UHGV virus genome: UHGV-0332176
Length of the DNA: 64,000 nt
Source: a virus
Direction: 5' to 3' (one strand)
Each line of letters starts with the position of its first letter. Position 1 is the first letter of the stretch. The notes under the pieces are model-generated. The model searched no databases and was not told where the DNA came from. It saw nothing but the letters and a program-made list of their open reading frames with translations. Positions 3,203 through 61,400 of this stretch are shown here, piece after piece. A program made the translations under genes and the position numbers.

Positions 3203-3289
3203 TGGAAGTCTGGACGAGATTCGAACTCGCATCATCTTTTCAGATATACGGTTTTGCAGACCGCTGTATAGCCATTCTACCACCAGACT
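3203..3289 (-). tRNA. tRNA with anticodon GCA (Cys) and U73 discriminator but type-II architecture (17-nt variable arm), CCA encoded
   Basis: RC: AGTCTGG/CCAGACT acceptor, GG in D-loop, anticodon stem-loop GCGGT-CTGCAAA-ACCGT, variable arm ATATCTGAAAAGATGAT, T-arm GCGAG-TTCGAAT-CTCGT, then U-CCA. Confidence 0.6.
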
Positions 3290-3296
3290 TATAAAA

Positions 3297-3371
3297 TGGT
3301 ACGGTAAGTGAGAATCGAACTCACATATTCAGCTTGGAAGGCTGACGTAATAGCCATTATACCATTACCGC
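3297..3371 (-). tRNA. tRNA-Gly (anticodon TCC)
   Basis: RC: GCGGTAA...TTACCGT acceptor (G1-U72 wobble), anticodon stem-loop TCAGC-CTTCCAA-GCTGA, T-arm GTGAG-TTCGATT-CTCAC, ACCA end. Confidence 0.75.
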
Positions 3372-3376
3372 ATTAA

Positions 3377-3451
3377 TGGAGCGACTTGCGAGAATCGAAC
3401 TCACATCTAAACCTTGGCAAGGTCTTGTATTAACCATTATACGAAAGTCGC
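3377..3451 (-). tRNA. tRNA-Gly (anticodon GCC)
   Basis: RC: perfect acceptor GCGACTT/AAGTCGC, D-stem GTAT/ATAC, anticodon stem-loop AGACC-TTGCCAA-GGTTT, T-loop TTCGATT, U73-CCA. Confidence 0.75.
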
Positions 3452-3457
3452 AAATAT

Positions 3458-3531
3458 TGGCAGGAGCATAGGGATTTGAACCCCAACAGACAGTTTTGGA
3501 GACTGTAATGCTACCGTTACATCATACTCCT
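3458..3531 (-). tRNA. tRNA-Trp (anticodon CCA)
   Basis: RC: AGGAGTA/TGCTCCT acceptor, U8, D-stem ATGT/GCAT, anticodon stem-loop ACAGT-CTCCAAA-ACTGT, T-loop TTCAAAT, G73-CCA. Confidence 0.75.
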
Positions 3532-3561: not shown

Positions 3562-4098
3562 TTATTTAATAATATCAATATATTTTTTATTAATTTCTTT
3601 AACAAGCCAAACGTTATTATCAGAAATATAAAATTCAATACCATCAGCTAACATTTGTTTAGCATCAATAGATAAAATAATTGTTTTACCTTTTCTTCTA
3701 TCACCAACTTTTTTAGCTGTTTCAATATCATTTGATAAATGAACATATTGCCTTTTCATAGGTAATAATCCTTTTTTCATAATTGAAGGAATATTACTTT
3801 CTTGTGTTCCGTGATATAAAATAATTGGTGGGATAGATTTCTTAAAATGTATATCTACATCTTTTGTTGTATGTCCTTGATTAGCTCTAATTTTTGTACC
3901 ATCTTCTGATATAGAAAATCGTTTCTTATCATTTGTATCAACAATTTCTTTAATTATATCATAAGATAATTTCATTTCAGAATTATCAATAATATATTGT
4001 ATATCTCCCCATCCTTCTTTATCTAATTTCAATTTAATAATTTCTGGTTTATGGCGTAGAATATAACTCAAATACTTACTAATTTCTATATTATTCAT
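3562..4098 (-). CDS. kptA: RNA 2'-phosphotransferase Tpt1/KptA
   Basis: Near-colinear match to E. coli KptA: SKYLSYILRHKPE, DKKRFS, IRANQGHTT, LYHGT, YVHLS, TAKKVG.RR.G, NNVWL. Confidence 0.9.
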   Translation of the reverse strand: MNNIEISKYLSYILRHKPEIIKLKLDKEGWGDIQYIIDNSEMKLSYDIIKEIVDTNDKKRFSISEDGTKIRANQGHTTKDVDIHFKKSIPPIILYHGTQESNIPSIMKKGLLPMKRQYVHLSNDIETAKKVGDRRKGKTIILSIDAKQMLADGIEFYISDNNVWLVKEINKKYIDIIK

Positions 4099-6147: not shown

Positions 6148-6681
6148 TTATTTTATATTTAATTTTTCTTTTATTTCTTCCCACGACCAAGGTTCATAAT
6201 TATGTGTATCAACCCCAATATCCATACAATTGATATTTTGATGTGGCATTAATTTCGTAAAATCAGCTAAATTAAATTTTCCGTGAGTATGACCATACAA
6301 ATGAATTGACCCGTGCCAAGCACAATCCCATTCTGCTATTGGATAATGAGATAATATAATTCTATTGTCATCAATAATAATTCGTTTATATGGAACAATT
6401 TCTGCCCATACATTTGATAATTGATGTGGTATAAGTTTATCGTGATTACCAATTATTAAATATTTAATACCATTCATTTTAGAAAATGTTTGTTGGATTT
6501 TATCAGAATTCCAACCCCAACAAACGTCTCCTAAAACATATATAATATCATTTACACCAACTTTTTTATTCCAACGCTTAATAATTTCTTCATTCATTTG
6601 CTGAACAGATGCAAATGGTCTATTTGAATGTCGTATACTATTTGTATGGTCTAAATGTAAATCACTTGTAAAAAATATCAT
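6148..6681 (-). CDS. Calcineurin-like metallophosphoesterase (binuclear-metal phosphatase); candidate RNA end-healing phosphatase
   Basis: Motifs SDLHLDH, GDVCWGW, GNHD, GHTHG. Start chosen at MIFFTSDLH (ATG 6681), giving a TAAAATG stop/start junction with the upstream gene; the ORF-track start at 6744 would overlap that gene by 62 nt. Confidence 0.8.
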   Translation of the reverse strand: MIFFTSDLHLDHTNSIRHSNRPFASVQQMNEEIIKRWNKKVGVNDIIYVLGDVCWGWNSDKIQQTFSKMNGIKYLIIGNHDKLIPHQLSNVWAEIVPYKRIIIDDNRIILSHYPIAEWDCAWHGSIHLYGHTHGKFNLADFTKLMPHQNINCMDIGVDTHNYEPWSWEEIKEKLNIK

Positions 6682-6682
6682 T

Positions 6683-7492
6683 TTATTCATCACCATACAT
6701 AATTGGTTCAGCATCATAAAAATAAGTTTCAACCTTATTTTCAACTTTTTTCATAATTGGTAATTGTAATTCTTGAACTTCACTACGCATTACCATATTA
6801 TTTTCAGGTCTTTTATCAGTAGGTATTTTAGATAATGTTTCTTCATCAAGAACTTTCATTACATTAACTCTTTTGAAATAAGACCCTCTTTTAAGAAATG
6901 GTTTAATATCATTAAAATTAATACCTTTTTCTTGAAATAGCATTTCATTCATTTCTGCTGTTGATTTACCTTGTAATTCTTTATGACTAAAATTTGCTTG
7001 TGCAACCATACTAACAGCATTTCGTGCAGCATCATTTTCTCGCCATACAAAAGCATTAGCTAATTCTATCATATTTGGTAATTGAAAGACACGACAATCA
7101 AAATTTGGTTTAAGATTTTCAACTTTTTCTTTTAATTTCGGATATTTCATACAATTTAAAACAAAAGATACAGTTGCCATTGATGCAAGAACAGATGTTA
7201 ATTTAAATAATCTTCCATCAAACGGTGCTTTACTCATATCTTCCCAAGCTAATGAAATTTCATCTGACTGAACATATCCAAGTTTTGCATTTGTCTGTTT
7301 TACTAAATCTTGACAAACCTCTCTCATAACTGCAACAAATTCCATATCAAATGGTTTATCTAATCCACGACAAAAAGTATGAAAAGCACGACCATCTAAT
7401 CTAACATATACAGGTAATCTTGGCATTAACATTGTTGATGTTGTTAATGCTTCATAAGTTTTCATACGGTCTCCCAAATTATCATTTATCAT
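6683..7492 (-). CDS. Thg1-like protein (tRNA-His guanylyltransferase family, 3'-5' nucleotidyltransferase)
   Basis: PVYVRLDGRAFHTF (Thg1 RxDGRxFHxF motif), VQSDEISLAW (GQSDEYSF), RLFKLTSVLASMATVSFV. Start placed at internal ATG 7492 (RBS AAGGA); 7465 (RBS GGGAGA) is also possible. The 7594 start in the ORF track would overlap the upstream gene by 100 nt. Confidence 0.8.
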   Translation of the reverse strand: MINDNLGDRMKTYEALTTSTMLMPRLPVYVRLDGRAFHTFCRGLDKPFDMEFVAVMREVCQDLVKQTNAKLGYVQSDEISLAWEDMSKAPFDGRLFKLTSVLASMATVSFVLNCMKYPKLKEKVENLKPNFDCRVFQLPNMIELANAFVWRENDAARNAVSMVAQANFSHKELQGKSTAEMNEMLFQEKGINFNDIKPFLKRGSYFKRVNVMKVLDEETLSKIPTDKRPENNMVMRSEVQELQLPIMKKVENKVETYFYDAEPIMYGDE

Positions 7493-7493
7493 T

Positions 7494-7844
7494 TTAATAT
7501 CCTTTAAATTTACTACAAAAACAAATCCGTTTTTTTCTTCTTTTTTCTCTTTTAAACATTGCAAAATCAATTCTTTTACAAATTGTATTTTCAAATATGT
7601 AATTTTCTAATTCAGTTAAAAAACTGTTATATAAATCATAATTCCAAATTTTACCTTTATATGGTTTTATCATATTTTTAATATGTGCCATTTGTTCTAC
7701 AGAAAAGTAATTTAGTCTAATATATAAACAAGTATTTTTCCATATTCTTAAAGATAAACAAGGTATATTATATGGAAACATTGTATTTGTTAATTTATTA
7801 ATATACCTATCACAAACAAAATTAACTTTTTTCTTATTTCTCAA
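7494..7844 (-). CDS. Hypothetical protein
   Basis: ORF immediately upstream of the Thg1-like gene; several possible internal starts. Confidence 0.4.
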   Translation of the reverse strand: MRNKKKVNFVCDRYINKLTNTMFPYNIPCLSLRIWKNTCLYIRLNYFSVEQMAHIKNMIKPYKGKIWNYDLYNSFLTELENYIFENTICKRIDFAMFKREKRRKKRICFCSKFKGY

Positions 7845-12118: not shown

Positions 12119-12715
12119 TTAAGTTAAATCAATCCCTAATTCTTTGGCTTTATTTAGTAATTGAACTCTATTATAACATTTCATTCTTTTTAAAATATTT
12201 GTTATATGAACTTTAACAGTAGATTCTGAAATATTCAATTCATATGCTATCTGTTTATTAGATAAACCTTTATTGATTAATTTAATAACATCAATCTGCT
12301 TATTTGTTACAATTTTCTTAAATGAATTAATTACTAAATTATTTGGAAAGTATGTTTCATTTAATAAAATCAAATTAATAATGTTAAAAATTTTATCATT
12401 GGAATACTTTTTAGAAATATATCCAGCAACATTATATCTCATATAATTAACTATATCAGTTGAAATATATTCTGATGTTAAAATAATTAATTTACCATTT
12501 AAATTTTGTTTTTGAAAAAATGATAAAATAGTTAAAATATCAATTTTTGGAGTTTTTGTAATAAAAATCAAATCATATTGGTTAGATAGAATATTATTTT
12601 TGATATTATTATAATCACAGCAAGCATTAATTTCACAATTTTCATCAATATGTGTTAATAATTCTTTTAATCCTGTAATATACAGTTCTTCATCATCTAT
12701 TATAAGTATTTTCAT
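12119..12715 (-). CDS. LuxR/FixJ-family transcriptional regulator with degenerate receiver domain (pseudo-response regulator)
   Basis: C-terminal HTH LSNKQIAYELNISESTVKVHITNILKRMK closely matches NarL/LuxR. N-terminal receiver-like MKILIIDDEE, but the phospho-acceptor position reads DLIFITK (Thr where Asp is expected). Confidence 0.8.
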   Translation of the reverse strand: MKILIIDDEELYITGLKELLTHIDENCEINACCDYNNIKNNILSNQYDLIFITKTPKIDILTILSFFQKQNLNGKLIILTSEYISTDIVNYMRYNVAGYISKKYSNDKIFNIINLILLNETYFPNNLVINSFKKIVTNKQIDVIKLINKGLSNKQIAYELNISESTVKVHITNILKRMKCYNRVQLLNKAKELGIDLT

Positions 12716-18169: not shown

Positions 18170-19807
18170 TTACATATTAGGTGTATTTTGTCTTATTGCT
18201 GACATTAACTTTAAATTAGTTTCAGTATCATCAATAATTAATCCTTCAACCGTTAATAATGAACCTGCAATTGAAGACCCATTTTCCAAAGCACAACGAA
18301 CAACTTTGGTTGCATCTAAAATACCTGCATCAACTAAATTACAGAATTTATCGCATTTAGCATCATATCCCCAAGAATAATCATCATTATCTAATACTTT
18401 TTCAACAATGACTTCACCAGATTTTCCAGCATTTTCTGCAATTTTTTTCATTGGAGCACTTAAAGATTTTAATACAATTTCATATCCAACATTTTCATCA
18501 TCTGTTATAACAATATTATTTAATTCCTTAATAAGGTCTTTTTGTGCTCTTACTAATGATACTCCACCACCAGGTAAAATACCTTCTTCTAATGCTGCTC
18601 TCGTTGCACAAACGGCATCATCAACACGGTCTTTCTTTTCTTTAACTTCTGTTTCAGTTGCTCCACCAACTTTAATAACAGCAACACCGCCAATTAATTT
18701 AGCAAGTCTTTCACGAAGTTTTTCTTTATCATATGATGAATCAGTATTTTCAATTTCTTCAGAAATTTGTTTTGCTCTTTCATCAATAGCTTCTTTACTT
18801 CCGTGTCCACCAATAATAATTGTTTCAGTTGGTGTAATTCTAATTTTATCGCAAGAACCCAAATCATCAATAGTTACTTTTTCTAATTGAGCACCAAATT
18901 GAGTTGAAATAAAATTACCACCTGTTAAAATTGCAATATCTTCCATTTGAAATCTACGAATATCACCAAATGAAGGAGCTTTAACAGCACAAACTTTTAA
19001 TCCTGCTTTAATTCTATTAATAACCAATGCTGATAATGGGTCATCTGCCATTTCATCGGCAATCATAATTAATGGACGACCAATTTCCATAACATTTTCT
19101 AACAAAGGAATAATAGATTGAAGATTGTTAATTTTACCATCATATAAGAAAATATATGGATTATCATACTCAACTAATTGTCTTTCTGGATTAGTCATAA
19201 AATATGGTGAAAGATAACCTTGGTCAAATTGTAAACCATCAACAATTTCTAATTCTGTCTTTAATCCCTTTGCTTCTTCAACAGTAACTACACCTTTTTC
19301 ACCAACAACTTCAATTGCTTTAGCAATAAAATCACCAATTTCTGTATCACCATTTGCAGAAATAGTTGCCAATTGACGAATTTCTTCATTTGTTGTTACT
19401 TTTTTTGAATGTGATTTTAATGATTCAACTACAACCTTAACTGCATTTGAAATACCTTTTTGAATTTCAGTAGATTTACGACCTTTAGAAATTGACTTTA
19501 AACCTTCTTCAGCAATTGTAGATGCAATTATACAAGTTGCTGTTGTACCATCACCTGCATCTCTACCAGTTTTTTCAGATGCTTGAATAATCATTTTTGC
19601 ACCTTCACCTTCAGAGTCCATTAGTGTAACAGATTTTGCAACAGTTACACCATCTTTTGTAACTTTTGGTGAACCCCAAGATTGTTGAATAGCAATTGTT
19701 CTACCAGCAGGACCAGCAGTAGCAGAAACAACATCTGCAACTGTTTTCATACCAGAATATAACGTACTACGAGCTTCATCACCTTTAATTACTTTTTTAA
19801 TTGTCAT
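18170..19807 (-). CDS. groEL: Chaperonin GroEL (Cpn60) homologue, no C-terminal GGM repeats
   Basis: 545 aa. N-terminus MTIKKVIKGDEAR; AVKAPSFGDIRRFQMEDIAILTGG; GGGVSLVRA. Ends ...RQNTPNM. RBS AAGGAGA. Confidence 0.93.
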   Translation of the reverse strand: MTIKKVIKGDEARSTLYSGMKTVADVVSATAGPAGRTIAIQQSWGSPKVTKDGVTVAKSVTLMDSEGEGAKMIIQASEKTGRDAGDGTTATCIIASTIAEEGLKSISKGRKSTEIQKGISNAVKVVVESLKSHSKKVTTNEEIRQLATISANGDTEIGDFIAKAIEVVGEKGVVTVEEAKGLKTELEIVDGLQFDQGYLSPYFMTNPERQLVEYDNPYIFLYDGKINNLQSIIPLLENVMEIGRPLIMIADEMADDPLSALVINRIKAGLKVCAVKAPSFGDIRRFQMEDIAILTGGNFISTQFGAQLEKVTIDDLGSCDKIRITPTETIIIGGHGSKEAIDERAKQISEEIENTDSSYDKEKLRERLAKLIGGVAVIKVGGATETEVKEKKDRVDDAVCATRAALEEGILPGGGVSLVRAQKDLIKELNNIVITDDENVGYEIVLKSLSAPMKKIAENAGKSGEVIVEKVLDNDDYSWGYDAKCDKFCNLVDAGILDATKVVRCALENGSSIAGSLLTVEGLIIDDTETNLKLMSAIRQNTPNM

Positions 19808-26582: not shown

Positions 26583-26849
26583 ATGAATAATTTATATTTG
26601 TTTTTAAAATATAAATGGTATGATTTAATTGAATCTGGTCAAAAAACATCCGAATATAGAGAAATAAAACCATATTGGATTAATAGATTAGAAAATAAAC
26701 ATTATGATACCGTTACATTTCAAAGAGGATTTACAAAAAATCCACCAAAAATGATGTTTAAAATACTTGAAATTAAAAAAACAACTTTGCCTAATGATTT
26801 AAAAAAAGCAGAAGTTTATGAAATTAAATTAGGAGAAAGGATAAAATAA
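26583..26849 (+). CDS. Small ASCH/PUA-like protein (hypothetical)
   Basis: LIESGQKTSEYREIKPYW pattern resembles the ASCH beta-barrel. Confidence 0.45.
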   Translation: MNNLYLFLKYKWYDLIESGQKTSEYREIKPYWINRLENKHYDTVTFQRGFTKNPPKMMFKILEIKKTTLPNDLKKAEVYEIKLGERIK

Positions 26850-27067
26850 TGTTAGATACACGAACAATAAAATGCCCTAAATGTGGATGGGATTCTTTAT
26901 TTCCTTTAAATCAACCTATGTTAATTGTTTTAACGCACGATATTATATGCCCTCATTGCGGAACTATTGTAATTCAAGCGTTTTCTACAACAATTTTATC
27001 AGATGGTTATTTTTTAGATGAACATAATGATTATTATAAACATAATCCTATAACCCGAAAATTTTAA
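26849..27067 (+). CDS. Zinc-ribbon protein (CPKCG...CPHCG)
   Basis: 72 aa. Confidence 0.45.
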   Translation: MLDTRTIKCPKCGWDSLFPLNQPMLIVLTHDIICPHCGTIVIQAFSTTILSDGYFLDEHNDYYKHNPITRKF

Positions 27068-33848: not shown

Positions 33849-36377
33849 ATGAAATTAGAACATATTATCACAGAAAACTTTCAAACTGTTTCAATAAATG
33901 GTATTCTTTATTCATTAAATACAGATGAAAAAGCAATTTATGATAAAATTAAAAATAATGAAAATAAAAAATTATTTAAAAAAGATTTAGATGAATTTAA
34001 TCAACGTATTGCTTCTGGATTAGTTACAAAAGGGATTTTACAAAGAAGAAAAAATCCTCAACACGAAATTTATTTTACAACTCGTGGAAGAAGAAAAAAT
34101 GCTGTTTATAATAGACCATTAGATGAAGTTGCTCCACCTGATACTGCAAGTGAAAAATGGATTAATAAAAATAAAGATAAATTTAAAGAAAAATATGGTA
34201 AAGATTATAAAAAATATTTATATGGCAAGGCTTGGAATATGTATAATGGTTCAACCATTAAAGAAACTTATGAATTACAAGCTATTTTAGACCGTTATAC
34301 ACTTATGGAAGCAACAACAGCTTATCACGGCTCACCTTATGATTTTGATGAATTTAATGTTAAATTTATTGGTAAAGGTGAAGGACATCAAGTTCACGGT
34401 TGGGGATTATATTTCGCAGAAGATATGAATACATCTAATTCATATTATAGAGATATGGGAAAAATTGATGCTATTAAATCTTTTACTTTAAATGGTAAAA
34501 GTTATGCAAAAGGTACTGTAATGTATAAAATATTATCTCTTATCTCACAAACAGGTAAAAAGAAATATGCTGTTGATAAATTAAATGAAATATTAAATAA
34601 TAAAGAATGGATTGATGCTCATCCAGATTATAAAACTAAAATTAAAGATTTAATTAAATTTATTCGTGGCATTAAGCAAAATGATTTAAAAGCCAATATT
34701 TCTATGAAAACTGGACAATTATTTACAGTTGAATTACCAGATAAGCAATACTATTTAGATGAAGATTTGCCTTTTGATAAACAATCACCAAATGTTCAAA
34801 AAGCAATTACAAATATATATAAATCTAATTCTAAATTTGATTTTTCATATTTAAAAAAATCCTCTTATACTGGTGACCAAATTTACAAATATATGTCTAA
34901 TGTATTGGGGGGGGATAAAAACGCTTCTTTGGCATTATATAACGAAAAAGTTCCAGGCATTCGTTATGATGGTTATCGTGATAATTTTTGCTTCGTAATA
35001 TTTAATGGCAAAGATGTTAAAATTGTTAATAAAGAAATTAATATATCTGATAATCTTTTATTACCAGAAAAAGAAATGATTGATGATGACCCATTTTTAA
35101 TTGCAAATATTGATAATCCTTCAGAAGAATTACAGTTATATGCATTAAATAGAAATTTTTCTGTATTTAAATATATTAAAAATCCAACAGAAAAAGTAAT
35201 TGAAAAAGCATTAGAATTAGATAGTAATAATTTAGTATATGTTCAAAATCCAACTTCTGAACAAATTTCTATTGCTATTAAAGATAATTATGATTTAGCA
35301 GTAGATATAGCTCCTAAATTAACTAAAGACCAAATATTTAATATTATTAAGGATGATGATACTTATTTTCCTCTTTTTTATAATAAAGTTCCAGAAATAT
35401 TTGATTTACAATTTTTTAAAAAATGCTTAAACCAAATTAACTCTTTTTCATATGATTTAAGTGAACAAATATTCCCATTAGAATATTTTGAATTAATAAT
35501 TGATAAACTTTTTGATAAAGATATTAATAATAACTTTTCATATATGGTAAAATTTGTTGAAAAAAATATTGACAATAATAATATTGATATTAATAATTTA
35601 TCAGATAAATTACGTTATATTTATATATACACAAATTATAAAAACATTACAACCTTTAAAGAAATTAAAGACCAAGATGTTCAAGCAATTATTGATTATA
35701 TAAATAACAATGGTAGTATTTATGATTATATTGTTTTAAATGAAAATCAAGCTAAATCACTTTCAATATCTATTGTTAATAAATTATTAAAATTAGTTAA
35801 AGTATTAAAAACAGATGCATCTAAGTTAAAAGCTGATTTATTTGTTCCATATTTAAATATGAAACAAATTGTTGCTTTTACTGAAGCCTATTTTTATTAT
35901 TTTCCTTCTTTTGTTTATCAATTATCTCATAATGATGAAACTAAATATATTGAATATTTAAATGAATTTTTTACTTACATTTATAATAAAGATAAAAAAA
36001 TAGTTAAGCAATTTTGTATATCAAATTCACAATGTAGAGAAATTATTAAAAATAATATATTACCAATTAAAGATAAATTAGATGCTGATGCATTACAAAA
36101 TTTTATGTCTATTATTATTTCTTTAATAACTACTGTTGCTTCAAAAACAAGAAAAGAATTAATATCTCAACTTGGGGAATTATCTTATCCACTTCAAAAA
36201 CAATTAGTTAATCAAAATATTATATATTCATTAGATATTCCAAATTTAGATAAAAGAATTCAAATGAAGTTGATTGAAAAAAATCCATTTAATATTAAAT
36301 ATATAAACAATCCGCTTCCTGAAATTGTTAAATTAGCTTATGAAAAAAATCCAGAAACTAAAAATTATATTAGATAG
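33849..36377 (+). CDS. Large hypothetical protein (842 aa) with internal ~30-aa helical repeats resembling DUF4116-type repeats
   Basis: Repeats LYALNRNFSVFKYIKNPTEKVIEKALELDSNNLVYVQNPTSEQISIAIKDNYDL and C-terminal NIKYINNPLPEIVKLAYEKNPE. Confidence 0.6.
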   Translation: MKLEHIITENFQTVSINGILYSLNTDEKAIYDKIKNNENKKLFKKDLDEFNQRIASGLVTKGILQRRKNPQHEIYFTTRGRRKNAVYNRPLDEVAPPDTASEKWINKNKDKFKEKYGKDYKKYLYGKAWNMYNGSTIKETYELQAILDRYTLMEATTAYHGSPYDFDEFNVKFIGKGEGHQVHGWGLYFAEDMNTSNSYYRDMGKIDAIKSFTLNGKSYAKGTVMYKILSLISQTGKKKYAVDKLNEILNNKEWIDAHPDYKTKIKDLIKFIRGIKQNDLKANISMKTGQLFTVELPDKQYYLDEDLPFDKQSPNVQKAITNIYKSNSKFDFSYLKKSSYTGDQIYKYMSNVLGGDKNASLALYNEKVPGIRYDGYRDNFCFVIFNGKDVKIVNKEINISDNLLLPEKEMIDDDPFLIANIDNPSEELQLYALNRNFSVFKYIKNPTEKVIEKALELDSNNLVYVQNPTSEQISIAIKDNYDLAVDIAPKLTKDQIFNIIKDDDTYFPLFYNKVPEIFDLQFFKKCLNQINSFSYDLSEQIFPLEYFELIIDKLFDKDINNNFSYMVKFVEKNIDNNNIDINNLSDKLRYIYIYTNYKNITTFKEIKDQDVQAIIDYINNNGSIYDYIVLNENQAKSLSISIVNKLLKLVKVLKTDASKLKADLFVPYLNMKQIVAFTEAYFYYFPSFVYQLSHNDETKYIEYLNEFFTYIYNKDKKIVKQFCISNSQCREIIKNNILPIKDKLDADALQNFMSIIISLITTVASKTRKELISQLGELSYPLQKQLVNQNIIYSLDIPNLDKRIQMKLIEKNPFNIKYINNPLPEIVKLAYEKNPETKNYIR

Positions 36378-37493: not shown

Positions 37494-37934
37494 ATGATGG
37501 ATTTTTCTGAAATTAAACATAAAATTTTAACTGATGACAAGATTGCATCAGCTTTTGAATATATGCTTTCTAAAATGGTTTTTGAAAACCCAATAAAACC
37601 TTTAAAATTCATATATAAAAAATGTAAAATTGTAACTGAAAGAAATAATTTATATTCAATTTATGATACAAAAACAGGAATTAAATTATATAGTAAAATT
37701 CACTTTCAAGAAGTAGCTAAATATATCGTTGATAATTTAAAAAGTTATGGTAAAGTATCATATATAATATTTTTAGAAAATGAATTATTTAGATATAAAG
37801 AAAAAATTGATTTTTTTAAAAATTATTATTTACAAAAAAAGACAGATATTTTAGAAATTAAATTATCTGCAATGTATGATTCATATTATAAAATAAAAAA
37901 TAGTTTATTAAATACTCTTAAAGAGAATACTTAA
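37494..37934 (+). CDS. Hypothetical protein (146 aa)
   Basis: Intact ORF; 3' end overlaps the convergent greA-like gene by 17 nt. Confidence 0.45.
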   Translation: MMDFSEIKHKILTDDKIASAFEYMLSKMVFENPIKPLKFIYKKCKIVTERNNLYSIYDTKTGIKLYSKIHFQEVAKYIVDNLKSYGKVSYIIFLENELFRYKEKIDFFKNYYLQKKTDILEIKLSAMYDSYYKIKNSLLNTLKENT

Positions 37935-38397
37935 TATCAACTATCTCATATTCAGTATCATTATATTCAAAATAATCATTAAATGTTAATCCAAGCATTT
38001 CTTTAACAAATGGAGCTTGAATAGATATTAATCCATTATTTATATCTGTTTCATACGTACTAACAATTGTATATGTTTTATTTACATTTGTCTCTGTATT
38101 AACAAAAGTAACTGTTGCCCCAAAACCAACTTTGTAATCTCCATAACTATTGTAACTAATCATTGATTTATCCCATAAAACACAATCACTTAAAATTAAT
38201 TGTAAATCATTAATTTTTCTTTCAATGCGGTCTTGGCATTCAATAGCTTGCAAATATTCAGGTGGAAATTCATCAGATACCCCTATTGGTCGTGTTTCTT
38301 CCAATAATTGATATGCTTGTGGACGTTCAACACGAATTAATTCATTTAATTCATTATTTAATTTATCAAATCCTTTTTTCGTTATAATTGTTTTCAT
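37918..38397 (-). CDS. Transcript cleavage factor GreA/GreB-family homologue
   Basis: Colinear with E. coli GreA: ITKKGFDKLNNELNEL..RP (TLRGAEKLREELDFL..RP), EYLQAIECQDRIERKINDL, GATVTFVN...TYTIVS, EYEIVDIKY. Confidence 0.7.
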   Translation of the reverse strand: MKTIITKKGFDKLNNELNELIRVERPQAYQLLEETRPIGVSDEFPPEYLQAIECQDRIERKINDLQLILSDCVLWDKSMISYNSYGDYKVGFGATVTFVNTETNVNKTYTIVSTYETDINNGLISIQAPFVKEMLGLTFNDYFEYNDTEYEIVDIKYSL

Positions 38398-41429: not shown

Positions 41430-41460
41430 AAAAGGTCAGGCATTGCCTGACCTTTTAAAA
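41430..41460. terminator. Bidirectional terminator (aaaaggtcaggc-attg-cctgacctttt)
   Basis: Between convergent genes. Confidence 0.7.
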
Positions 41461-42027
41461 TTCTTCTAATTCTGTTTCCCAATATTCTTTAGAAAACCAA
41501 TCATTTTCATCATATTCTTTAAATTTACGATTTTTACGATTGTTTTCTTCTAATTGTCTAATTGTTGGTACTTTTGGTTCGTGAATTAATTTCATATGCG
41601 ATTCTTCAAGCGTTTTTCCACCTTTTTTACCATTACATTCACGACAAGCAGTAACAATATTATCCCACGTTGTTTTTCCACCTTTACATCTTGGCATTAC
41701 GTGGTCAAATGTTAAATCATCGGCTTTAAATTTATTTCCACAATATTGACAAATATAATTATCTCTTAAATATACATTTCTTCGAGAAAATTTTGGTGTA
41801 TGTGTTACATTAATATACTTTTTCAAAACAACAATTTTTGGCAATTTCATTTCTTTGTTTTGAATAATAATTGTATCATCATATTCTTTAACAACCGATA
41901 ATCTTCCTTTAAGGAGAGATTTAATAACCTTTTTCATACTATTTAAAGATAAAGGATATTTACTTAATGGTTGATAATCACCATTAAGAATTAAAACTGG
42001 TCTATTCATAATATTTTTATTTGTCAT
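41455..42027 (-). CDS. HNH endonuclease (phage HNH family with N-terminal RPVLILNGDYQPL motif)
   Basis: CQYCGNKFKADDLTFDHVMPRCKGGKTTWDNIVTACRECNGKKG. N-terminal motif typical of phage terminase-associated/homing HNH proteins. Confidence 0.85.
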   Translation of the reverse strand: MTNKNIMNRPVLILNGDYQPLSKYPLSLNSMKKVIKSLLKGRLSVVKEYDDTIIIQNKEMKLPKIVVLKKYINVTHTPKFSRRNVYLRDNYICQYCGNKFKADDLTFDHVMPRCKGGKTTWDNIVTACRECNGKKGGKTLEESHMKLIHEPKVPTIRQLEENNRKNRKFKEYDENDWFSKEYWETELEEF

Positions 42028-43222
42028 TGTTAATCATCTTTTCAAAATCTGTTATTGTTATTTTTTTCCATTTTACCTGTCTAATTAATTCTTGTAATGT
42101 TGCAGGATTAATTGAACATTTTTTAAATAAATTGTCAAGTCCTAATTTATCATATATCATTTTATTTGCTGTTATATTATCTAAATTAGATAATTCAACC
42201 TTATAATCCATTCTTCCATCTCGTAAGAAAGCATCATCTAAATGCTCAATATGATTAGTTGTAAAAAAGCAAATTGCTCCTTCAGATGTATAAAGACCAT
42301 CTAAAACATTTAAAATATCTGATAATGTTAATTTATCTTTATTATTTCCAGCTACACCAAAATCATCAGAAGATTCATTTCTTTCAAGAACTAAATTAGA
42401 CATTGCATCAATATCTTCAAAAACATAAAATGTCTGCTTTGTATCTTTAATAGAATATAATAAACTATTAACATCAGTAATTGATTTTAAATTAATAACA
42501 TTTATTTTAAAATTCAATTCACTTGCTAATGCTAATATTAAAGAACTTTTTCCTGTACCAGGTGAGCCATAAAGTAAATAATTTCTTTTATAAAGAATAT
42601 TATCATTAATATATTCATTTTGTGAAGATAGAAAATATTTAATATCCTTTAATAAATCAGCAGCAATATTATTATTAGTATAAATTGTTGAAAGAGGTCT
42701 TTTATTTCTTTTAATAGAATTATAATCATATTTAATTGTAATTTTATTCTCATAAATTTCAGATACATTTTTCATTTGAGAAGTCATTTTTTTAATAAAC
42801 TTCTTTTTATTAGCAAAAAATACTCTCATAGTTGTATAAATTGTCAACGATGATGATGCTGGTTCTTCTTTATATTCTTTATTAACTATGACAATGTGAT
42901 TAAAAATCCAATACCAAGTTTTTCCATATCCTTCTTTAATTTTATTTGTATTAGTAATTTCATATGAACGTTGGATTAAATGTTTTTGATTTTGTAAAAA
43001 TGTATCTAAATCTGTACATTCATTCATTCCAAAATCTAATGCTTTTGAAACATTCGTTATATTAAAAGAAATTAAATTAATTAAATGTTGCCAAATAAAT
43101 TCAAGGATTATACGACTGTGCATTACTAAAATAGCAATTATACCGCCACTATACATTGTTGTTATTAAAGGATTATTTTTAATTAATTCTTGAATAAAAC
43201 TTAACATTAAATATCTCCACAA
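42017..43222 (-). CDS. AAA+ ATPase, BCS1-like
   Basis: Walker A LLYGSPGTGKSS; Walker B YVFEDID; second region of homology DAFLRDGRMDYKVEL; hydrophobic N-terminal segment; 11-nt overlap with the HNH gene. Confidence 0.8.
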   Translation of the reverse strand: MWRYLMLSFIQELIKNNPLITTMYSGGIIAILVMHSRIILEFIWQHLINLISFNITNVSKALDFGMNECTDLDTFLQNQKHLIQRSYEITNTNKIKEGYGKTWYWIFNHIVIVNKEYKEEPASSSLTIYTTMRVFFANKKKFIKKMTSQMKNVSEIYENKITIKYDYNSIKRNKRPLSTIYTNNNIAADLLKDIKYFLSSQNEYINDNILYKRNYLLYGSPGTGKSSLILALASELNFKINVINLKSITDVNSLLYSIKDTKQTFYVFEDIDAMSNLVLERNESSDDFGVAGNNKDKLTLSDILNVLDGLYTSEGAICFFTTNHIEHLDDAFLRDGRMDYKVELSNLDNITANKMIYDKLGLDNLFKKCSINPATLQELIRQVKWKKITITDFEKMINNDK

Positions 43223-43331: not shown

Positions 43332-44537
43332 TTAGATGAAACGTAAGTTAGCAACTTTAATTTTAGCTAAGAAGTCACCAGCGTTACCTAAAGAGTTAGC
43401 TGGGTTAGTTAAAGCAAAGAAACCATAACGTGTGCTTAATGCCATAACGTGTTCGAATGTATTAGGGTCTAAGATAGTACCTGATGACATTACTGGAATG
43501 TATGGGCAGTAATAAGCAGCAGCATCAATTTCATCTGAACCTTTATAACCAATTAAGATGTCGTCATCTTTTGCATATGTGTTAACATATACTTTTAATG
43601 TGTTATTTAAAGTACCAACGTATTTGTTATTTGTTGGAGCTTCAAATGTACCTTCTGTAGTTCTTACGAATTGAGAAGCAGTAGCTGATTGTAATACTGA
43701 TAATACTGTATGTGAAACTACTGACCAGTTAGCTGATGCTTTTCTGATTTTACGAGCAATTTCATTTGAGTATCTGTTAATCATAACAGCTAAAGCAGCG
43801 TGTTCGTCAACAACTGATGTAGCAACACCTGAAATTTTGTTTTGGTCATATGTTGCAACTGGTAAACCAGCAATAGCTTGTAATTTACCTAAAATTTCTT
43901 GGTCAATATCTAATACGATTTCTTGAGCTAAAGCAGAAGTTAATTCTTGTTCAATATTAGCACCGTATTGAGATTGAGCATCTTGCATAGCTTCTAATGT
44001 AAATCTTGCTTTTAATTTACGTGAGCCAGCTTTAACATCTTCTTTTACGAATTCAATGTTAATATCGTTACCACCTGTACCTTCTAATACAGCTGTATCA
44101 GCAGCACCTGGGTTAACCATATCTTCATTACCAGAATACCAAGCACCAACTAAGAATGGTGATAATGCTTCTTGACCAGCGATGATACCAGAACCATCAA
44201 CAGGAGAATTTGTAGCATATCTAATTCTCATAGTTGTAATTGTACCAGAAGGACCTGATAATGGTTGAACACCTACTAATTCGTGAGCCATAACTGTTGG
44301 CATAATACGTTTAATTAAAGGCATCATAACTTTGTTAATAATTGCTACGTTAGCAGCAACTGTTGAACCTTGTGTTGCGTGTTCTGCTAAGAATTGTCTA
44401 CGAACATTTTCTAAAACAGATTCTGTGATACGTCTACGAGATGCACCTTTAATATCAGAAACCATACCTTTTTTCAATCTATTCCAAGCGGTTGGGCTTT
44501 CTAATAATAACACGCCTTTATCAATATTTGTTGTCAT
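43332..44537 (-). CDS. gp23: Major capsid protein, T4 gp23 family
   Basis: HELVGVQPLSGPSG (cf. T4 FDICGVQPMNSPTG); GYKGSDEIDAAAYYCPYIP (cf. GYKGPNEMDAGIYYAPYV); GC-rich codon usage; RBS AGGAGAAAAAA. Confidence 0.93.
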   Translation of the reverse strand: MTTNIDKGVLLLESPTAWNRLKKGMVSDIKGASRRRITESVLENVRRQFLAEHATQGSTVAANVAIINKVMMPLIKRIMPTVMAHELVGVQPLSGPSGTITTMRIRYATNSPVDGSGIIAGQEALSPFLVGAWYSGNEDMVNPGAADTAVLEGTGGNDINIEFVKEDVKAGSRKLKARFTLEAMQDAQSQYGANIEQELTSALAQEIVLDIDQEILGKLQAIAGLPVATYDQNKISGVATSVVDEHAALAVMINRYSNEIARKIRKASANWSVVSHTVLSVLQSATASQFVRTTEGTFEAPTNNKYVGTLNNTLKVYVNTYAKDDDILIGYKGSDEIDAAAYYCPYIPVMSSGTILDPNTFEHVMALSTRYGFFALTNPANSLGNAGDFLAKIKVANLRFI

Positions 44538-55423: not shown

Positions 55424-55449
55424 AAAAAAGGAGTTTAAACTCCTTTTTT
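55424..55449. terminator. Terminator palindrome aaaaaaggagttt/aaactcctttttt downstream of the giant ORF
   Basis: Perfect 13-bp palindrome. Confidence 0.65.
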
Positions 55450-58400
55450 ATTGTTCAAAATATTCTAATATTTTTTGAATAACAATTGCACTTTCAGTAT
55501 TCAAATAATCATATTTTGTTTGATTACCAATGAAAATTGAATCATCTCTTAAATCATATTCACCATTCCAGAAATTTAATGTTACATTAAATCCTTCAGC
55601 AACTGTAATTTTACTTCCACTTGGAACAGTTGATTTAGTAAATGGTAATTCATTACTTAAATATTCAAGAGTATCATTGCTTCCTGTTTTTAATCCTAAC
55701 ACAATAGCAGGAGTTGAAACACCAGAAACTAATGAAAATGTAATAGGATATTGATTAAATCCTTCTCCTGAAATATCAGGAATATAAATTTTAACGTTAT
55801 TAGCAAAACTATTTTTCATATAAGATGCATCTAAAACGCCATCTTTTGTAATATTAATACCCATATAATCATAACTATTCCATAAATCATCAGTAACTAT
55901 AAAATCAGATGTTCTTGGTTTTTCATCTCTATACCAATTAGGAACATTATTTTTTAATTCGGCATCTTCCATATAAGTATATAAAGATTCAGATACATTA
56001 ATTGTACCATCCTGCAAACCAACTGTATGGAAAATTGGTGAATTTCCTTGCATACCTTCATATTGTTTTAATATCCATTTACCATCAGAATATATTTTAA
56101 CAATATCTCCTGATTCAAAATGATATTCTTCAAAATGTTCTTGTAAATCTATTTCTGATTCAAATGTTGCTCTTGGAGTTATCATTGGAATTGAATCGTC
56201 AGCATATAAATCTTTATATGTCCAATATTTTGAAACGTCATATGTTTGATATTTTATTAACGTATAATCATTTAAATTATCCATTCTCCATAATGTCCAA
56301 ATATTATCATAAACTTCATCAGTTTTTACTAAAATATTTTTTCCAATTAATGCAGTATCTTCACTTGAAATCATCTCTAAATGAGTATCAAATGAAAAAT
56401 CATATTCTGGATATGGTTCTTTACTTAAAAAGATATTATTAAATTCTGTTGAACCAACATCAATATCAGATAAGACATCACGAGTATTAAAAATATGATT
56501 TAAAATATCAACTAAATTTTGTCTTGCTCTAACAATATTTTCAAACATTGTTTGTCTTGGTCTAATATATATACCAATTTTATTTCTTGGTAATAATTCT
56601 GGGTCAGGAACAGTTTGTCCTAAACTATCATATCCAACTAAACTTGCTTTCATTTTATCCCATAATGAATCAGGAATTTCAGCATCAGTATTTTCTTTAA
56701 CTAATACCCATTCTTCGTGTTCAGTTACATCATTATCACCTAAGAAATTTAATTGAATAACAAAATCTCTACCTGCATTTAATGTATCAAAATTACCAAC
56801 AATCATTGAACTATATTGAGTTTCTCCATCATATGCATATATTGGAGAATACCAAATAACTCCTTCATCTTGTGGTGAATTAATTATTTGTGAAATATAT
56901 AATGCACTTGTATGTCTAAATGAAACATTTGGTATACTTGATGGATTCTTTACCCAATAATAGTAATAAATTTCATTCTTTTCAGTAGCTTTATTATAAA
57001 TTTCTTTTTTAACATAAGAAGTTACTGTTTGTGGAAGATTAATTGATTTAGTCCATTCCATAATAGCTATTTCTGAACCAGGCATTTGTTTACCCCAATT
57101 ATTTCTTCTATAAGTAATATCTCCTTGTGAATAATCTAAATATTTAACTTTTGAAATATCCCACCATAATTGACCAACTTTATTATCTCCCCAAGTTGAA
57201 TAATTATTATAATCAGCAGGGTCTTGGGCAATTATATAATTTACTTCTTTTAATAAATTATTTGGAATAATACCTTGAATTGGGTCAAATGGTTGAATAA
57301 TTGCCATTGTTTTATTATTATCATCGTTTACCATATAACAAGATTTAATTTCTTTAATATTAATTTTTCTATTTTGTAAACGATATAATGAATAAGTTTT
57401 ATCAATAGTTGGTTTATAATCTATATCTGTTTCTATTTCATTATAAACTTCACCTTGTTGTTCATCAATAAATTTAAAAACTGACCACGCCATTTTATCA
57501 ATAATATTTTGTGAATCATTGATTAAATAAGAAGGGTCATATATTTTCTTTAAATTATCAACATTATTAATAACATCTCTTAAAACATAAATTAAATCAC
57601 CAATCTCTAAATGAGTTTTATCAAAAGAATATACATCAGAAATTTTATTAACAACCATTGAAATATAATCATCATCAGATATTTTCTTTCTAATATCCCA
57701 ACCTTGATTTGTTTCAGCAAAAGATACCCAAACTTTTTCTCCAACTTTCATATTTTCAAAAGTTGTCTTAAAAGTTGCTTCATTATCTACTATATAATTT
57801 GTTTCTCCAATTTGTGCAAATCCTGCTGTTGGATAAAATTTAAAATCATTTGTGAAATTAAATTTATTTTCAGATTTATTCTCTTTTTGCTTTAACCAAT
57901 CTTGATTATTCCAAGTAATATCAACAATTGAACTATTAGCTTTAACATTATCAGCAGTTGTAAATGAAATAATTTGAGGGTCTTGAGTAATTAAATCTGG
58001 TTGAATTTTTAATTCAATTACTGAACTATTTGATGTATATCCAAATTCTCCAATTTTAAATGCCCAGTTTTCAAATAATTCTATTTCATTATTTTCAGCA
58101 TCCATAATATAAGTTGAACGATTTAATTTACCAAATGAACGTTTTGTTCCTTTTTCTTTTAGTAATCCTTTATAGAAATCAAATATATTTCTATCATCAA
58201 TTAAAAGTCTTTCCATAGATGGTAATTTTTGAAAACCTATTGTTCTTTTAGCATAATCACCAAATACACCTTGTGAACGTACATCATCTGTATTATAAAA
58301 ATATTTAAAATCATTAGCTAATTTATCGTAGTTTGGATATGCTCCATCTTTATCAATTAAATAACCTGGTGCAAAATAAGTTCCATTCCATCCATCAACT

Positions 58401-61400
58401 TTAATTCCTAAAAGTTTTAATCTTTGAGCTTTAATACAAAGTAGTGGGTCATAAATAACATCACCATAAATTGTTTGATTATCAAATAAAATGATATGTT
58501 CATTTTCAATTTCTTTAATTTTTAAACAAGTAACGGCTTTATCTAATGACATTATATAAGTATCGCCATCTTTACGATATACATCTAAATCCTCGTTAAA
58601 AATTGGTAATGATGCAGTATTTAAAATTGACCAATAACCATTTATATATTGTCCAACTTTATCAATAAATGCATCGTGAAAAATACCAATACCATCAGCA
58701 CCAGGATTTAACATAATAATAGAATCAATATCAATTTGAGTTGTTGTCCACAATAAGAAATCTCTTGATTTACTTCTAAAATTAATAATTTCTCCATTTG
58801 CATCTAATATATTAAAATACCAACCTTCAACATCCTCTAAATATTTTCCATACCCATTAATAACATTATAAACATCTTGAATTGAAGAATATACTGTTTT
58901 ATAATTTACTTTTTGAAGATTATCTGTCCATTCATTATAATAAATAATATTTCTTCCTGAAATATTAACAGTTGACTTTTTACCATTATATTGAGGAACT
59001 TTAACTATAAAATATGGTTTTTCATAATCAAATCCATCAATCATATATCCTGATTCAACTTTTTGAATAACAATAGCTGAATAAGAATATTGTTTATCAG
59101 TAATAGTTTTATATAAATCTAATTCATAATTTTGTGATGGAATTACTCCAAAATTATCAGATAATATTTTAATACTATCATACTTATAAAAGCCTGCACA
59201 TTTATATGATAATTTCATAGAAATATCACGAATAGATTTAGCAATATAATTTGTTATATCAACATTTTCGTGTAATAAAAAGTCTGAAATCCATTGTTGA
59301 ATACCTATTTTTTGAACATATTCATTATCAATATACTCATTATGCATAATTATATCAGAAGGTGAAGGACGTTTACCTAAATCATCATAAATAATTTGTT
59401 CATATGAAGTATCTTTAAAAATTGTTTTAATATTTTTAGTATCCCAATTATTTTCAACCCATTCTGTTGGTCTCATCATATATAAAATTGTTTGTATTGA
59501 ATATCTATATTCAGATGTATACATCCAAGCGAATTCCCAACGACCTATATCACCAACTTTCCAAGATTGTTTAGCATAATATGGAATTGGTGCATTTAAA
59601 ACAATACCAATTTCAACTGGATTTAATAATTCACCATTTTCATTAACTGGTAAATACTTTTCAATTAAATTTGGACGTTTTAAAAATTCATATATACCTT
59701 TTGATTCACCATCAGCAACATATCCATTTTCAATATCTTGCCACATAGGTAAATTTGAAGATGTATAAGGAGCAGAACCATAATGGTCTTCCCACCAAGA
59801 TGGTTGTGAACCAAAACCTAACATTTCCCAAGGATGTGTATGTGGTCTATAAGTATCATAATAATATATATAAATTGATTTATATGAACCATATAATTGT
59901 TCACCATCCGCATCTACACAAGTTGAATAATTCCAACTAAATGGGTCATTTTGGTCAAAACCATCATTAATAGTGTAGTCAACTCCTTTATCTTGACACC
60001 ATTTTTCAAAAATTGGAGTTAAAAATTCTTTATATTCAACTTGATTATAATCTGTTGTTCTAAATTTTCCTGGTATATATTCCAATTTATTATATGAAGG
60101 CAAACTATTTTTAAACTTATCTAAAATAGAATTGTAAATTGCTGTTTCAATTTCTATTAAAGCATTATCACGATAATCATTAAATAACATTTGATATGAA
60201 CCATCGTGGCATAATAATACTTTTGGTTTATTAGGATTTTCTTCAAATGTAATAATTTGTGGTTTATAATAAGAATCTAAACCTAAATATGCAGGAGTTG
60301 CTGGAATATAACAATCTCCATATTCAGATGCAACTCCATTATTATAAAATGAATCTAATCCTTCCTTACCTAGATTAATTTTATTTAATGCACTTTGAAC
60401 AATTTTTTTAACATCCGTTTCTTGAGTTACGTGTGAAATTGAACCACTTGGACTTACAATATCAACTGTTTCAAATTCATCATATTCACCATTATTACTC
60501 ATTGTTGTAATAATATTTTTAAATTTAGTTTTAAATTTAGTATATTCATTAGTTATATATGTTAAAACAGTTCTAATATTAGAAAATTCTCTTGAATTTA
60601 ATAACATTGTTTTAAGTGCTGGACTTTCGTGTTGTAAAATTTCTGTACCTAATGATAAATCTTTTTTTGTATTATTATAATTATTATTTCCTGAAGAATT
60701 ACCACTAAATGCACTTTGGTTTTCAATGATACTTCTTAATTGGTCAAAACATTCATTATAATTAATTTGTGAAATATCTTCATTCATCGCATTTGATGTT
60801 ATTGTTAAAGGCAAATCATAAAAATAACCATCAGCAATTGTATTAGTTAATTTTTTAACTAATAATTTAATATATAAATTATCATCTGCATTTAAAATAC
60901 TTGTTTCAGAAATCATAAGTTTTTTATTTTTGATAATATAATCTGTACCATCATTTAATAAAACACCATTTAAATAAACAAAAGATGATTTTTTATTTGA
61001 AACTTCATCTGGCTGATATGCTAAATTAAATACAGTATATTTAACATCATCAATTATTTCATAAATTTTATTATCTGTAACAGTTATTTCAGTTGTAATA
61101 TATTGTGTTGTTGTATCTTTAGATATATACCAGTTATTTAAATATATATCTTGACCATTTAATTTAAAAAATTTAAAACCTTCATAATCTTTTAATATTG
61201 TATAATCATAATATGTAAAAGTTTGAGTTCTAATTATATTATCAAAAATGTAATTTCCATAGCCATCAGTAACAATTGCTTTATTTAAATCTTCATCAAT
61301 TGTTGCACCAGAATCATCAGTTGTAACATAATCAAATAATTTACTACCTTTAAATGATGATTGATTGTAATATAATTGATTATCTAATGCATTTTTTTCA

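Follow-up and report, generated by a model that had tools for sequence, protein, structure and literature searches.

A tRNA gene with a GCA anticodon (here the GCA tRNA), located in a 64,000-nt stretch of the virus genome UHGV-0332176, probably encodes a functional phage tRNA-Cys isoacceptor. We refer to the whole 64,000-nt stretch as the window; positions are window coordinates, and the tRNA lies on the minus strand. Textbooks restrict the bacterial long-variable-arm (class II) tRNAs to Leu, Ser, Tyr and Sec, and to our knowledge the only long-armed tRNA-Cys described is selC*, a rare mimic of tRNA-Sec. The GCA tRNA joins a 7/5 class I body to a hairpin in the variable (V) region, which sets it apart from all described tRNA-Cys. 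Such 7/5 tRNA-Cys with a V hairpin recur in phages, as at least 130 distinct sequences and in ~8-10% of the sampled phage tRNA-Cys genes; a jumbo phage common in human-gut metagenomes carries one of these. A textbook structural rule is bent by a widespread form, the function of which is most likely ordinary cysteine decoding.

Fold, conservation and body of the GCA tRNA

The minus-strand tRNA-Cys(gca) call of ARAGORN spans precisely 3203-3289, which confirms the location proposed in a first-pass annotation and adds the strand. Positions 3206-3289 covered the Rfam tRNA model RF00005 in full and scored 53.8 bits (gathering score 29; E=9e-9). The RNA, divided by structural element, reads AGUCUGG-UG-GUA-G-AAUGGCU-A-UAC-A-GCGGU-CUGCAAA-ACCGU-A-UAUCU-GAAA-AGAUG-AU-GCGAG-UUCGAAU-CUCGU-CCAGACU-U-CCA. 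Its layout is 7/5, with a 7-bp acceptor stem, a 5-bp T stem and a 5-bp anticodon stem, and the cloverleaf has the stems of RF00005 together with the conserved U8, A14, G18 G19, U33 and T-loop UUCRA. In the RF00005 alignment, the GCA anticodon occupied the canonical positions of the loop CUGCAAA with high posterior probability, and a 14-nt insertion fell within the variable region. Clan competition in Rfam retained the general tRNA model over tRNA-Sec. The first-pass annotation had named an anticodon in another loop register, or a pseudogene score, as outcomes that would undo it; the covariance-model alignment places the anticodon in the canonical register, and the gene is no pseudogene.

The V region, AUAUCUGAAAAGAUGAU, is 17 nt long and consists of one unpaired nucleotide, a 5-bp stem with one U.G pair, a GAAA loop and two unpaired nucleotides. 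The stem-loop is thus real, and the acceptor stem AGUCUGG/CCAGACU, the anticodon loop and the discriminator U73 that had been folded by hand are all read in the sequence. The observation behind that annotation, that the two major determinants of cysteinyl-tRNA synthetase (CysRS), GCA and U73, are joined here with a long V arm, stands as well and is unusual for a tRNA-Cys. The pair G2:C71 is present, and the Levitt position is formed by A15 and U48, not G15:G48. The cloverleaf is not the minimum free energy (MFE) structure of the single sequence (-21.8 vs -26.2 kcal/mol). Single-sequence folding often misses the cloverleaf in AT-rich tRNA transcripts, and covariation was therefore used as support for the fold.

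Six strains of this phage, taken from different samples (L404-L409), carried the GCA tRNA with 100% identity, and its sequence was identical across eight related contigs; the identical gene is recorded for L001-L004 as well as for L404-L409. It was also identical in two relatives whose adjoining Tpt1 protein was only 82% identical, and an identical copy was found on a human-gut metagenome contig (L278). When the tRNAs of the window were compared with those of the relative L002, identity was 71.6% for tRNA-Trp, 98.7% for tRNA-Gly(GCC), 94.7% for tRNA-Gly(UCC) and 100% for the GCA tRNA. A diverged allele was found on contig L178 (83% identity with the V region excluded). The alignment of this allele with that of the window comprised 25 pairs, including those of the V stem, and was 98% paired. 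It contained five double compensatory changes (one in the D stem, two in the V stem and two in the T stem), against 0-2 in slid controls, and three single changes that preserve pairing, one of them in the V stem. In an alignment of 16 sequences of the subfamily, the cloverleaf was 96.9% paired and 16/20 pairs showed double changes, a score reached by 0/500 shuffles. The covariation in both alignments and the identity among strains therefore indicate purifying selection on the gene as a tRNA, with the V hairpin as part of the selected structure. The GCA tRNA gene is a bona fide, conserved and covarying tRNA in canonical register and, judging from these alignments, its V hairpin is itself under structural selection.

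The body of the tRNA was scored against isotype profile hidden Markov models built from the phage tRNAs collected here, from which the anticodon arm, V region and discriminator had been cut out. As controls, the window's tRNAs for Leu, Gly and Trp were all assigned correctly. Cys_I ranked first for the bodies of both the window and the L178 GCA tRNA (24.5 and 33.5 bits, respectively), followed for the window tRNA by Asp_I (23.2 and 27.3 bits), Gly_I (18.9 and 23.3), Cys_II (16.7 and 28.9), Ser_II (14.0 and 29.7), Leu_II (11.9 and 13.8) and, lowest, Tyr_II (7.0 and 21.8). Pairwise body identity failed to separate the isotypes (0.78 to Cys_I, 0.79 to Leu_II, 0.79 to Ser_II and at most 0.71 to Tyr_II). 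Membership in tRNA-Leu was rejected on U73, the GCA anticodon and the Leu_II score, and membership in tRNA-Tyr on U73, C35 and the Tyr score.

Comparison with the class I tRNA-Cys of the T4-like Acinetobacter phages Acj61 and AC4 pointed to the same isotype. The D arm is one base off theirs, and its 7-nt loop lacks the length of the D-loops of Tyr and Ser tRNAs. These genes match the GCA tRNA over its 5' half and also align with it at the T arm and at the 3' end of the V region. Like these canonical tRNAs, it has GCA, U73, the 7/5 layout, A36-A37-A38, a small D-loop and a purine-purine 13.22 pair; it differs in having a 17-nt GAAA-capped hairpin instead of a V region of 4-8 nt and A1:U72 instead of the usual G1:C72. 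Relative to the Acj61 and AC4 genes, it resembles a tRNA-Cys whose variable loop holds an insertion of ~11 nt. A class I tRNA-Cys origin of the body is probable rather than proven, because the margin over Asp is small.

Long-armed GCA tRNAs in other phages

The first-pass annotation had taken the tRNA for a possible chimera, yet the long-V GCA tRNA turned out to belong to a recurrent phage form. IMG/VR was scanned for GCA anticodon arms spaced so far from the following T-loop that the variable region must be long, and the hits were passed through ARAGORN and a structural parse. This yielded at least 122 viral long-V GCA tRNAs. Among the matches listed, U73 was present in 119/122 and G1:C72 in 109, nearly all were 7/5, and the V region ranged from 9 to 22 nt. 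A scan for the small AAUGG D-loop of the window's own subfamily gave ~18 distinct sequences, all with U73. The scan of bacterial genomes returned mostly sequences from Nitrospirota and Thermodesulfovibrionales, with V regions of 22-27 nt, that failed the 7/5 parse and are of the published selC* type; it also yielded 7/5, U73 long-V GCA tRNAs within multi-tRNA arrays typical of phages or prophages. In total, at least 130 distinct 7/5, U73, long-V GCA tRNAs were gathered. Long-V GCA tRNAs with U73 and the 7/5 layout also lie in complete or draft bacterial chromosomes, including one at 2430-2513 of L204 (Anaerococcus sp. DFU013_CI05, chromosome NZ_CP175954.1) and a nearly identical 83-nt gene found within a multi-tRNA array in four assemblies of Chryseobacterium spp. 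(L150, L175, L185 and L201).

A less biased sample was drawn by a pattern that accepts any V length (n=104 phage tRNA(GCA) genes). The V region was 4-8 nt long in 96 and 14-19 nt in 8 (7.7%) of these genes, and 103/104 had U73. Within the same loci, a long V region was found in 9/95 (9.5%) of the tRNA-Cys genes vs 20/687 (2.9%) of those for other class I isotypes (Fisher p=0.005). The V regions of GCA tRNAs folded into a hairpin at an MFE of <= -2 kcal/mol in 63% of cases, vs 10% after shuffling. GNRA caps closed the V loop in 44% of the GCA tRNAs, in 33% of phage tRNA-Ser and 42% of phage tRNA-Leu, and in 0/37 Tyr hairpins; the idea that the GNRA cap is a special signal was rejected, since it is equally common in the V arms of phage Ser and Leu tRNAs.

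Discriminators and arm geometry were compared across isotypes. In the sampled loci, tRNA-Tyr had A73 in 49/49 cases and class II tRNA-Leu in 100/101, tRNA-Ser (n=91) had G73 in 66 and U73 in 23, and class I tRNA-Cys had U73. Long-V Asn, Asp, Pro, Thr and Trp tRNAs kept the discriminators of their class I counterparts, as expected if the cognate synthetase charges the long-V tRNAs. The V arms of tRNA-Ser mostly had one unpaired nucleotide on the 5' and one on the 3' side (1/1) and stems of 5-7 bp, those of tRNA-Leu were 0/1, and those of tRNA-Tyr were 1/3, their stems being 3 bp long. In the main group of long-V GCA tRNAs from phages the geometry was 1/3 with short stems, and the window tRNA showed 1/2 with a 5-bp stem.

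Loci in which long-V and canonical GCA tRNAs occur together are L038 (3841-4716 and 12820-13241), L010, L026, L044, L111, L116, L127 and L324. At L038, canonical and long-V twins with the same anticodon were present for Asn(GUU), Cys(GCA), Pro(UGG) and Asp(GUC), with the cognate discriminators kept. Bacterial tRNA-Leu is class II, and ~38% of the sampled phage tRNA-Leu (loci L288-L402) were without the long arm, with a V region of 4-5 nt and ~75 nt overall (for example, L001 17281-17355 and L038 2941-3015), while 62% kept it. Gain and loss of the variable arm both appear to be common in phage tRNAs.

A further case came from the sibling strains L404 (11293-11380), L405, L406 and L408, in which an 88-nt tRNA-Trp(CCA) replaces the 74-nt one of the window. 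The 88-nt allele has the same acceptor stem (AGGAGUA/UGCUCCU) and G73 but carries a 16-nt variable hairpin (Rfam 54.2 bits) and differs from the window's allele in the D arm, anticodon stem and T arm. The strains with this allele carry an identical Tpt1 plus a 229-aa open reading frame (ORF) without a Pfam hit between Tpt1 and the array. One phage population therefore holds class I- and class II-shaped alleles of the same isoacceptor.

Searches of cultured phages gave no counterpart: megablast of the tRNA region found no match, a distant blastn of the tRNA array returned generic tRNA-Gly genes only, and three other long-V GCA tRNAs, used as blastn queries against INPHARED, brought up no annotated tRNA-Cys with a long V arm. 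The tRNA-Cys of Bacillus phage G is canonical. A literature search, with subscription journals outside its coverage, found no description of a 7/5 long-V phage tRNA-Cys. The long-armed 7/5 tRNA-Cys is thus a recurrent phage form that is apparently undescribed. Annotation pipelines and isotype models should not flag long-V GCA genes as chimeric or as pseudogenes. Long-V tRNAs also constitute a natural experiment that shows which synthetases tolerate a V arm, and they offer scaffolds for tRNA engineering, such as V-arm tagging.

Cysteine decoding and its alternatives

As a working tRNA-Cys, the GCA tRNA would be transcribed, probably as part of a Trp-Gly-Gly-Cys array, and processing of the transcript would release an 87-nt tRNA with its terminal CCA already in place. 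The body would be that of an ordinary class I tRNA-Cys, and the 17-nt V region an expansion of the variable loop by ~11 nt that forms the GAAA-capped hairpin. The host CysRS would charge it via the GCA anticodon and U73, and the UGU and UGC codons of the phage would be read as cysteine. As a rule, class I synthetases bind on the face of the tRNA that points away from the variable region, and this mode of binding, together with the selC* precedent, suggests that CysRS probably tolerates the hairpin. CysRS relies mainly on GCA and U73, and in minihelices U73 by itself is enough for cysteine acceptance (PMC9976931). A selC* tRNA-Cys with a long V arm works in translation with suitable CysRS variants (PMC5389517). 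The short variable loop of 4-5 nt seen in typical tRNA-Cys is absent from the GCA tRNA; it is a typical feature and no known identity determinant.

Codon use in the window is consistent with this function. Cysteine codons account for 211/19,407 codons (170 UGU and 41 UGC, 1.09%) in 72 ORFs that cover 91% of the window. All four zinc-ligand cysteines (CQYC, CREC) of an HNH endonuclease (41455-42027; Pfam HNH) are encoded by UGU, and CxxC pairs in the ORFs at 1139-1669 and 26849-27067 are encoded by UGY. Replacement of cysteine by serine at the UGU-encoded zinc ligands would therefore be damaging, and these codons are indirect support for ordinary cysteine decoding over Cys-to-Ser missense. Recoding of stop or Cys codons was rejected: the standard code gives 91% coding, most ORFs end in TAA, and the Cys motifs are intact.

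Several observations weigh against an ordinary tRNA-Cys. The G15:G48 pair is absent, although this determinant belongs to the E. coli/H. influenzae lineage and is conserved in only a few bacteria (PMC9976931). The first pair, A1:U72, is rare, occurring in 2 of at least 130 unique long-V GCA tRNAs, and a selC* tRNA-Cys(UCA) with A1:U72 needed a specialised CysRS (Mukai et al., PMC5389517). Long variable arms of the wrong geometry can impede ribosomal translocation (PMC11231383). The lead of Cys_I over Asp_I in the body profiles is only 1.3 bits. Finally, in eight loci a long-V GCA tRNA lies beside a canonical tRNA-Cys, a hint that the long form may have a task beyond that of the canonical one.

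If the GCA tRNA is a tRNA-Cys, the hairpin is most likely a tolerated or selected insertion; candidate reasons for its presence would be neutral tolerance, escape from a host tRNA-targeting nuclease and recognition by phage enzymes. The coexisting twins, the enrichment in Cys, the neighbouring genes of RNA-repair type and the class II-shaped tRNA-Trp allele hint that it is more than neutral. A hairpin that is merely tolerated would be a modest structural curiosity, and one that is adaptive against tRNA-targeting defences would represent a new phage counter-defence mechanism. A wider version of the adaptive case, which we consider unlikely, is that phages keep parallel, class II-shaped isoacceptors of class I tRNAs (Cys above all, but also Trp, Asn, Asp, Pro, Thr, Ile, Val and Met) with cognate anticodon and discriminator. 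Were this true, the hairpin would mark or protect phage tRNAs, for instance by hindering a host tRNA-targeting nuclease or toxin or as a handle for phage enzymes of RNA repair or modification, such as the neighbouring Tpt1 and Thg1-like proteins, and the window tRNA would be an instance of an unrecognised layer of phage-host conflict over tRNAs.

The same observations bear on a role outside decoding, in which the GCA tRNA would be a decoy or sacrificial substrate of a host nuclease or toxin, a substrate or guide of RNA-repair enzymes, or a regulatory tRNA-like RNA. Genes for Tpt1/KptA, a Thg1-like protein and a phosphoesterase directly adjoin the array, and the side-by-side long-V and canonical GCA tRNAs, the long-V tRNA-Trp allele of the sibling strains and the higher frequency of long V regions in Cys (9.5% vs 2.9%, p=0.005) would also fit such a role. 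The features needed for translation, however, are kept and covary (7/5 stems, U33, A37, T-loop, G18 G19, CCA and cognate discriminator), and neither the window nor the 20-kb related loci contained a canonical tRNA-Cys twin. The surroundings showed no nuclease or defence context, and the proximity of the repair genes is circumstantial. The decoy or enzyme substrate suggested in the first-pass annotation thus found no direct support, and an accessory role seems rather unlikely.

It is quite improbable that the GCA tRNA accepts serine, in which case seryl-tRNA synthetase (SerRS) would read the long arm and serine would be inserted at UGU and UGC, fully or ambiguously. SerRS identity depends chiefly on the long V arm; G73/U73 allo-tRNAs have been proposed as serine acceptors (PMC5389517, PMC7609411). 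U73 is found in about a quarter of phage tRNA-Ser (17/69 class II tRNAs sampled), and G2:C71 is present in the GCA tRNA. The V arm of the latter, however, has 1/2 geometry, whereas phage tRNA-Ser is predominantly 1/1 with stems of 5-7 bp, and its D-loop, at 7 nt, has neither the 20a/20b insertions nor the length with which the D-loop of tRNA-Ser packs on the V arm. Because a quarter of phage tRNA-Ser have U73, geometry and D-loop make serylation improbable rather than impossible. The body scored 14.0 bits on the Ser profile vs 24.5 on Cys, U73 (119/122 of the viral long-V GCA matches listed) is the cysteine discriminator and a minority state for Ser, and UGU encodes zinc-ligand cysteines in the HNH and CxxC motifs. 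The allo-tRNAs and the phage (8/4) tRNA-Ser and tRNA-His (Mukai et al. 2017) resemble the window tRNA in having long V arms, a partly phage or metagenomic origin and, in some cases, U73 with non-serine anticodons. They are proposed Ser acceptors with a 12-bp acceptor branch (8/4 or 9/3) and tRNA-Sec-like D arms; an allo-tRNA identity was rejected for the window tRNA, which is 7/5 with a D stem of 3-4 bp and a 7-nt loop.

A further alternative, that a class II scaffold (Tyr or Leu) was repurposed by mutation of anticodon and discriminator to cysteine identity, appears very doubtful and concerns origin only, as the present identity set is that of cysteine either way. The first-pass annotation had put forward a Tyr scaffold as an example; the GCA and GUA anticodons are a single base apart. 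Among phage long-V GCA tRNAs, the largest group is Tyr-like (1/3 geometry, stems of 3-4 bp, long D-loop), the D arm of the window tRNA also resembles those of phage tRNA-Leu, and its A15/U48 pair matches Leu. The body, however, scored 7.0 bits on Tyr and 11.9 on Leu vs 24.5 on Cys_I, and its identity was at most 0.71 to Tyr vs 0.78 to class I Cys. GNRA V loops were absent from all 37 Tyr hairpins, and the window tRNA has GAAA. The Tyr scaffold with a single anticodon change finds no support in these scores, in the Cys-like D arm or in the A73 of all 49 tRNA-Tyr. Class II Ser, Leu and Tyr tRNAs share with the window tRNA a stem-loop variable arm of similar length; they have G73 (Ser) or A73 (Leu and Tyr), and the window tRNA has U73, a small D-loop and a V geometry unlike that of Ser and Leu. 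The nematode nev-tRNAs also place a V arm on tRNAs with class I amino-acid anticodons. They are reported to be class II and tied to alternative decoding for leucine (PMC3333845), whereas the discriminator of the window tRNA matches the amino acid of its own anticodon.

A tRNA of the selC* or tRNA-Sec-like type with a specialised elongation factor or synthetase is effectively refuted by stem lengths, despite the long V arm, U73 and GCA that it shares with selC* tRNA-Cys and an A1:U72 that recalls Desulfobacterales selC* tRNAs: the window tRNA is 7/5, not 8/4, with a normal 5-bp anticodon stem, the recovered Nitrospirota sequences of selC* type have V regions of 22-27 nt and fail the 7/5 parse, no selA, selB, selD or cysS was found among the scanned window ORFs, and Rfam kept the general tRNA model over tRNA-Sec. 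The selC* tRNA-Cys (PMC5389517, PMC7609411) have GCA or UCA anticodons, are tRNA-Sec-like with longer acceptor and anticodon stems (8/4 in some groups) and V regions of 22-27 nt, and are chromosomal in anaerobic bacteria that carry sel genes, with some requiring a dedicated CysRS* or SelB*; the window tRNA is phage-borne, with a 17-nt V region and no sel genes among the scanned ORFs. Among the systems compared, it most probably works like, and is, a tRNA-Cys.

Genome context

The window, with a G+C content of ~25%, comes from a phage. Among its gene products are a T4-like portal, major head and baseplate proteins, a prohead protease and a Cpn60-type chaperonin. ARAGORN found five tRNAs, all on the minus strand. 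Four of them form the tight Trp-Gly-Gly-Cys array, with spacers of 5-7 nt and the GCA tRNA as the last member. The parts of the GCA tRNA, the other tRNAs and the nearby RNA-processing genes are listed in Table 1.

Table 1. Elements of the GCA tRNA and neighbouring features in the window
Feature	Position	Strand	Description or basis
GCA tRNA, whole gene	3203-3289	minus	87 nt including encoded CCA; ARAGORN, RF00005 53.8 bits
Acceptor stem, 5' strand	3283-3289	minus	AGUCUGG, first pair A1:U72; 7/7 paired in sequence
D arm	3266-3280	minus	GUA-G-AAUGGCU-A-UAC; 3 Watson-Crick pairs plus G13.A22, 7-nt loop with G18 G19; cmscan alignment
Anticodon arm	3248-3264	minus	GCGGU-CUGCAAA-ACCGU; GCA at 3255-3257; U33 and A36-A37-A38 present
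Variable region	3231-3247	minus	17 nt: A, then hairpin UAUCU-GAAA-AGAUG (3233-3246), then AU
T arm	3214-3230	minus	GCGAG-UUCGAAU-CUCGU; Rfam alignment
Acceptor stem, 3' strand	3207-3213	minus	CCAGACU; sequence
Discriminator	3206	minus	U73; sequence
Encoded 3' CCA	3203-3205	minus	absent in the relative L001 (reads ACC)
tRNA-Leu(UAA)	814-900	minus	ARAGORN
tRNA-Gly(UCC)	3297-3371	minus	ARAGORN/Rfam
tRNA-Gly(GCC)	3377-3451	minus	ARAGORN/Rfam
tRNA-Trp(CCA)	3458-3531	minus	ARAGORN/Rfam
Tpt1/KptA RNA 2'-phosphotransferase	3562-4098	minus	Pfam 3e-50; directly upstream of the array
Phosphoesterase	6148-6744	minus	phrog_547; upstream of the array
Thg1-like tRNA-His guanylyltransferase-family protein	6683-7594	minus	Pfam 4e-31; upstream of the array

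The small ORFs between the Tpt1, phosphoesterase and Thg1-like genes yielded no RNA ligase or kinase, and no aminoacyl-tRNA synthetase was found in the 64-kb window. The search for selA, selB, selD and cysS homologues (Pfam and PHROG) covered the scanned ORFs of these 64 kb of a 204-288 kb genome and was negative. A promoter scan gave 20 hits vs 18.1 expected, which is the chance level, and no terminators.

In the assembly collection, 187 blocks contained the exact Tpt1 protein; its contigs measure 204-288 kb and have sample names suggestive of human-gut cohorts. Because of this distribution, the sample names and the tRNA copy on L278, the window phage is considered a common jumbo phage, probably of the gut. 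The contig L178 (CASEYV010000001.1, 283,511 bp) was deposited as 'uncultured bacterium bin.81'; judging from a Tpt1 that is 96% identical, a G+C content of ~27% and a matching size, it is almost certainly a jumbo-phage genome close to that of the window. Its tRNA region is rearranged, with an HNH-like homing endonuclease ORF (817-1563) between the tRNA-Trp and the GCA tRNA and no Gly tRNAs.

In the window, the HNH endonuclease gene (41455-42027, minus strand) lies just downstream of an AAA ATPase gene (42017-43222), the latter located after the major head protein gene (43332-44537), and looks like a homing-endonuclease insertion in the structural module. Other genes on the minus strand encode a LuxR-type response regulator with receiver and GerE domains (12119-12715), the Cpn60/GroEL-type chaperonin (18170-19807) and a GreA/GreB-like transcript cleavage factor (37918-38397). 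An 842-aa protein with a weak ADP-ribosyltransferase (ART-PolyVal) match is encoded on the plus strand at 33849-36377, and a 2453-aa ORF occupies 55448-62809 on the minus strand.

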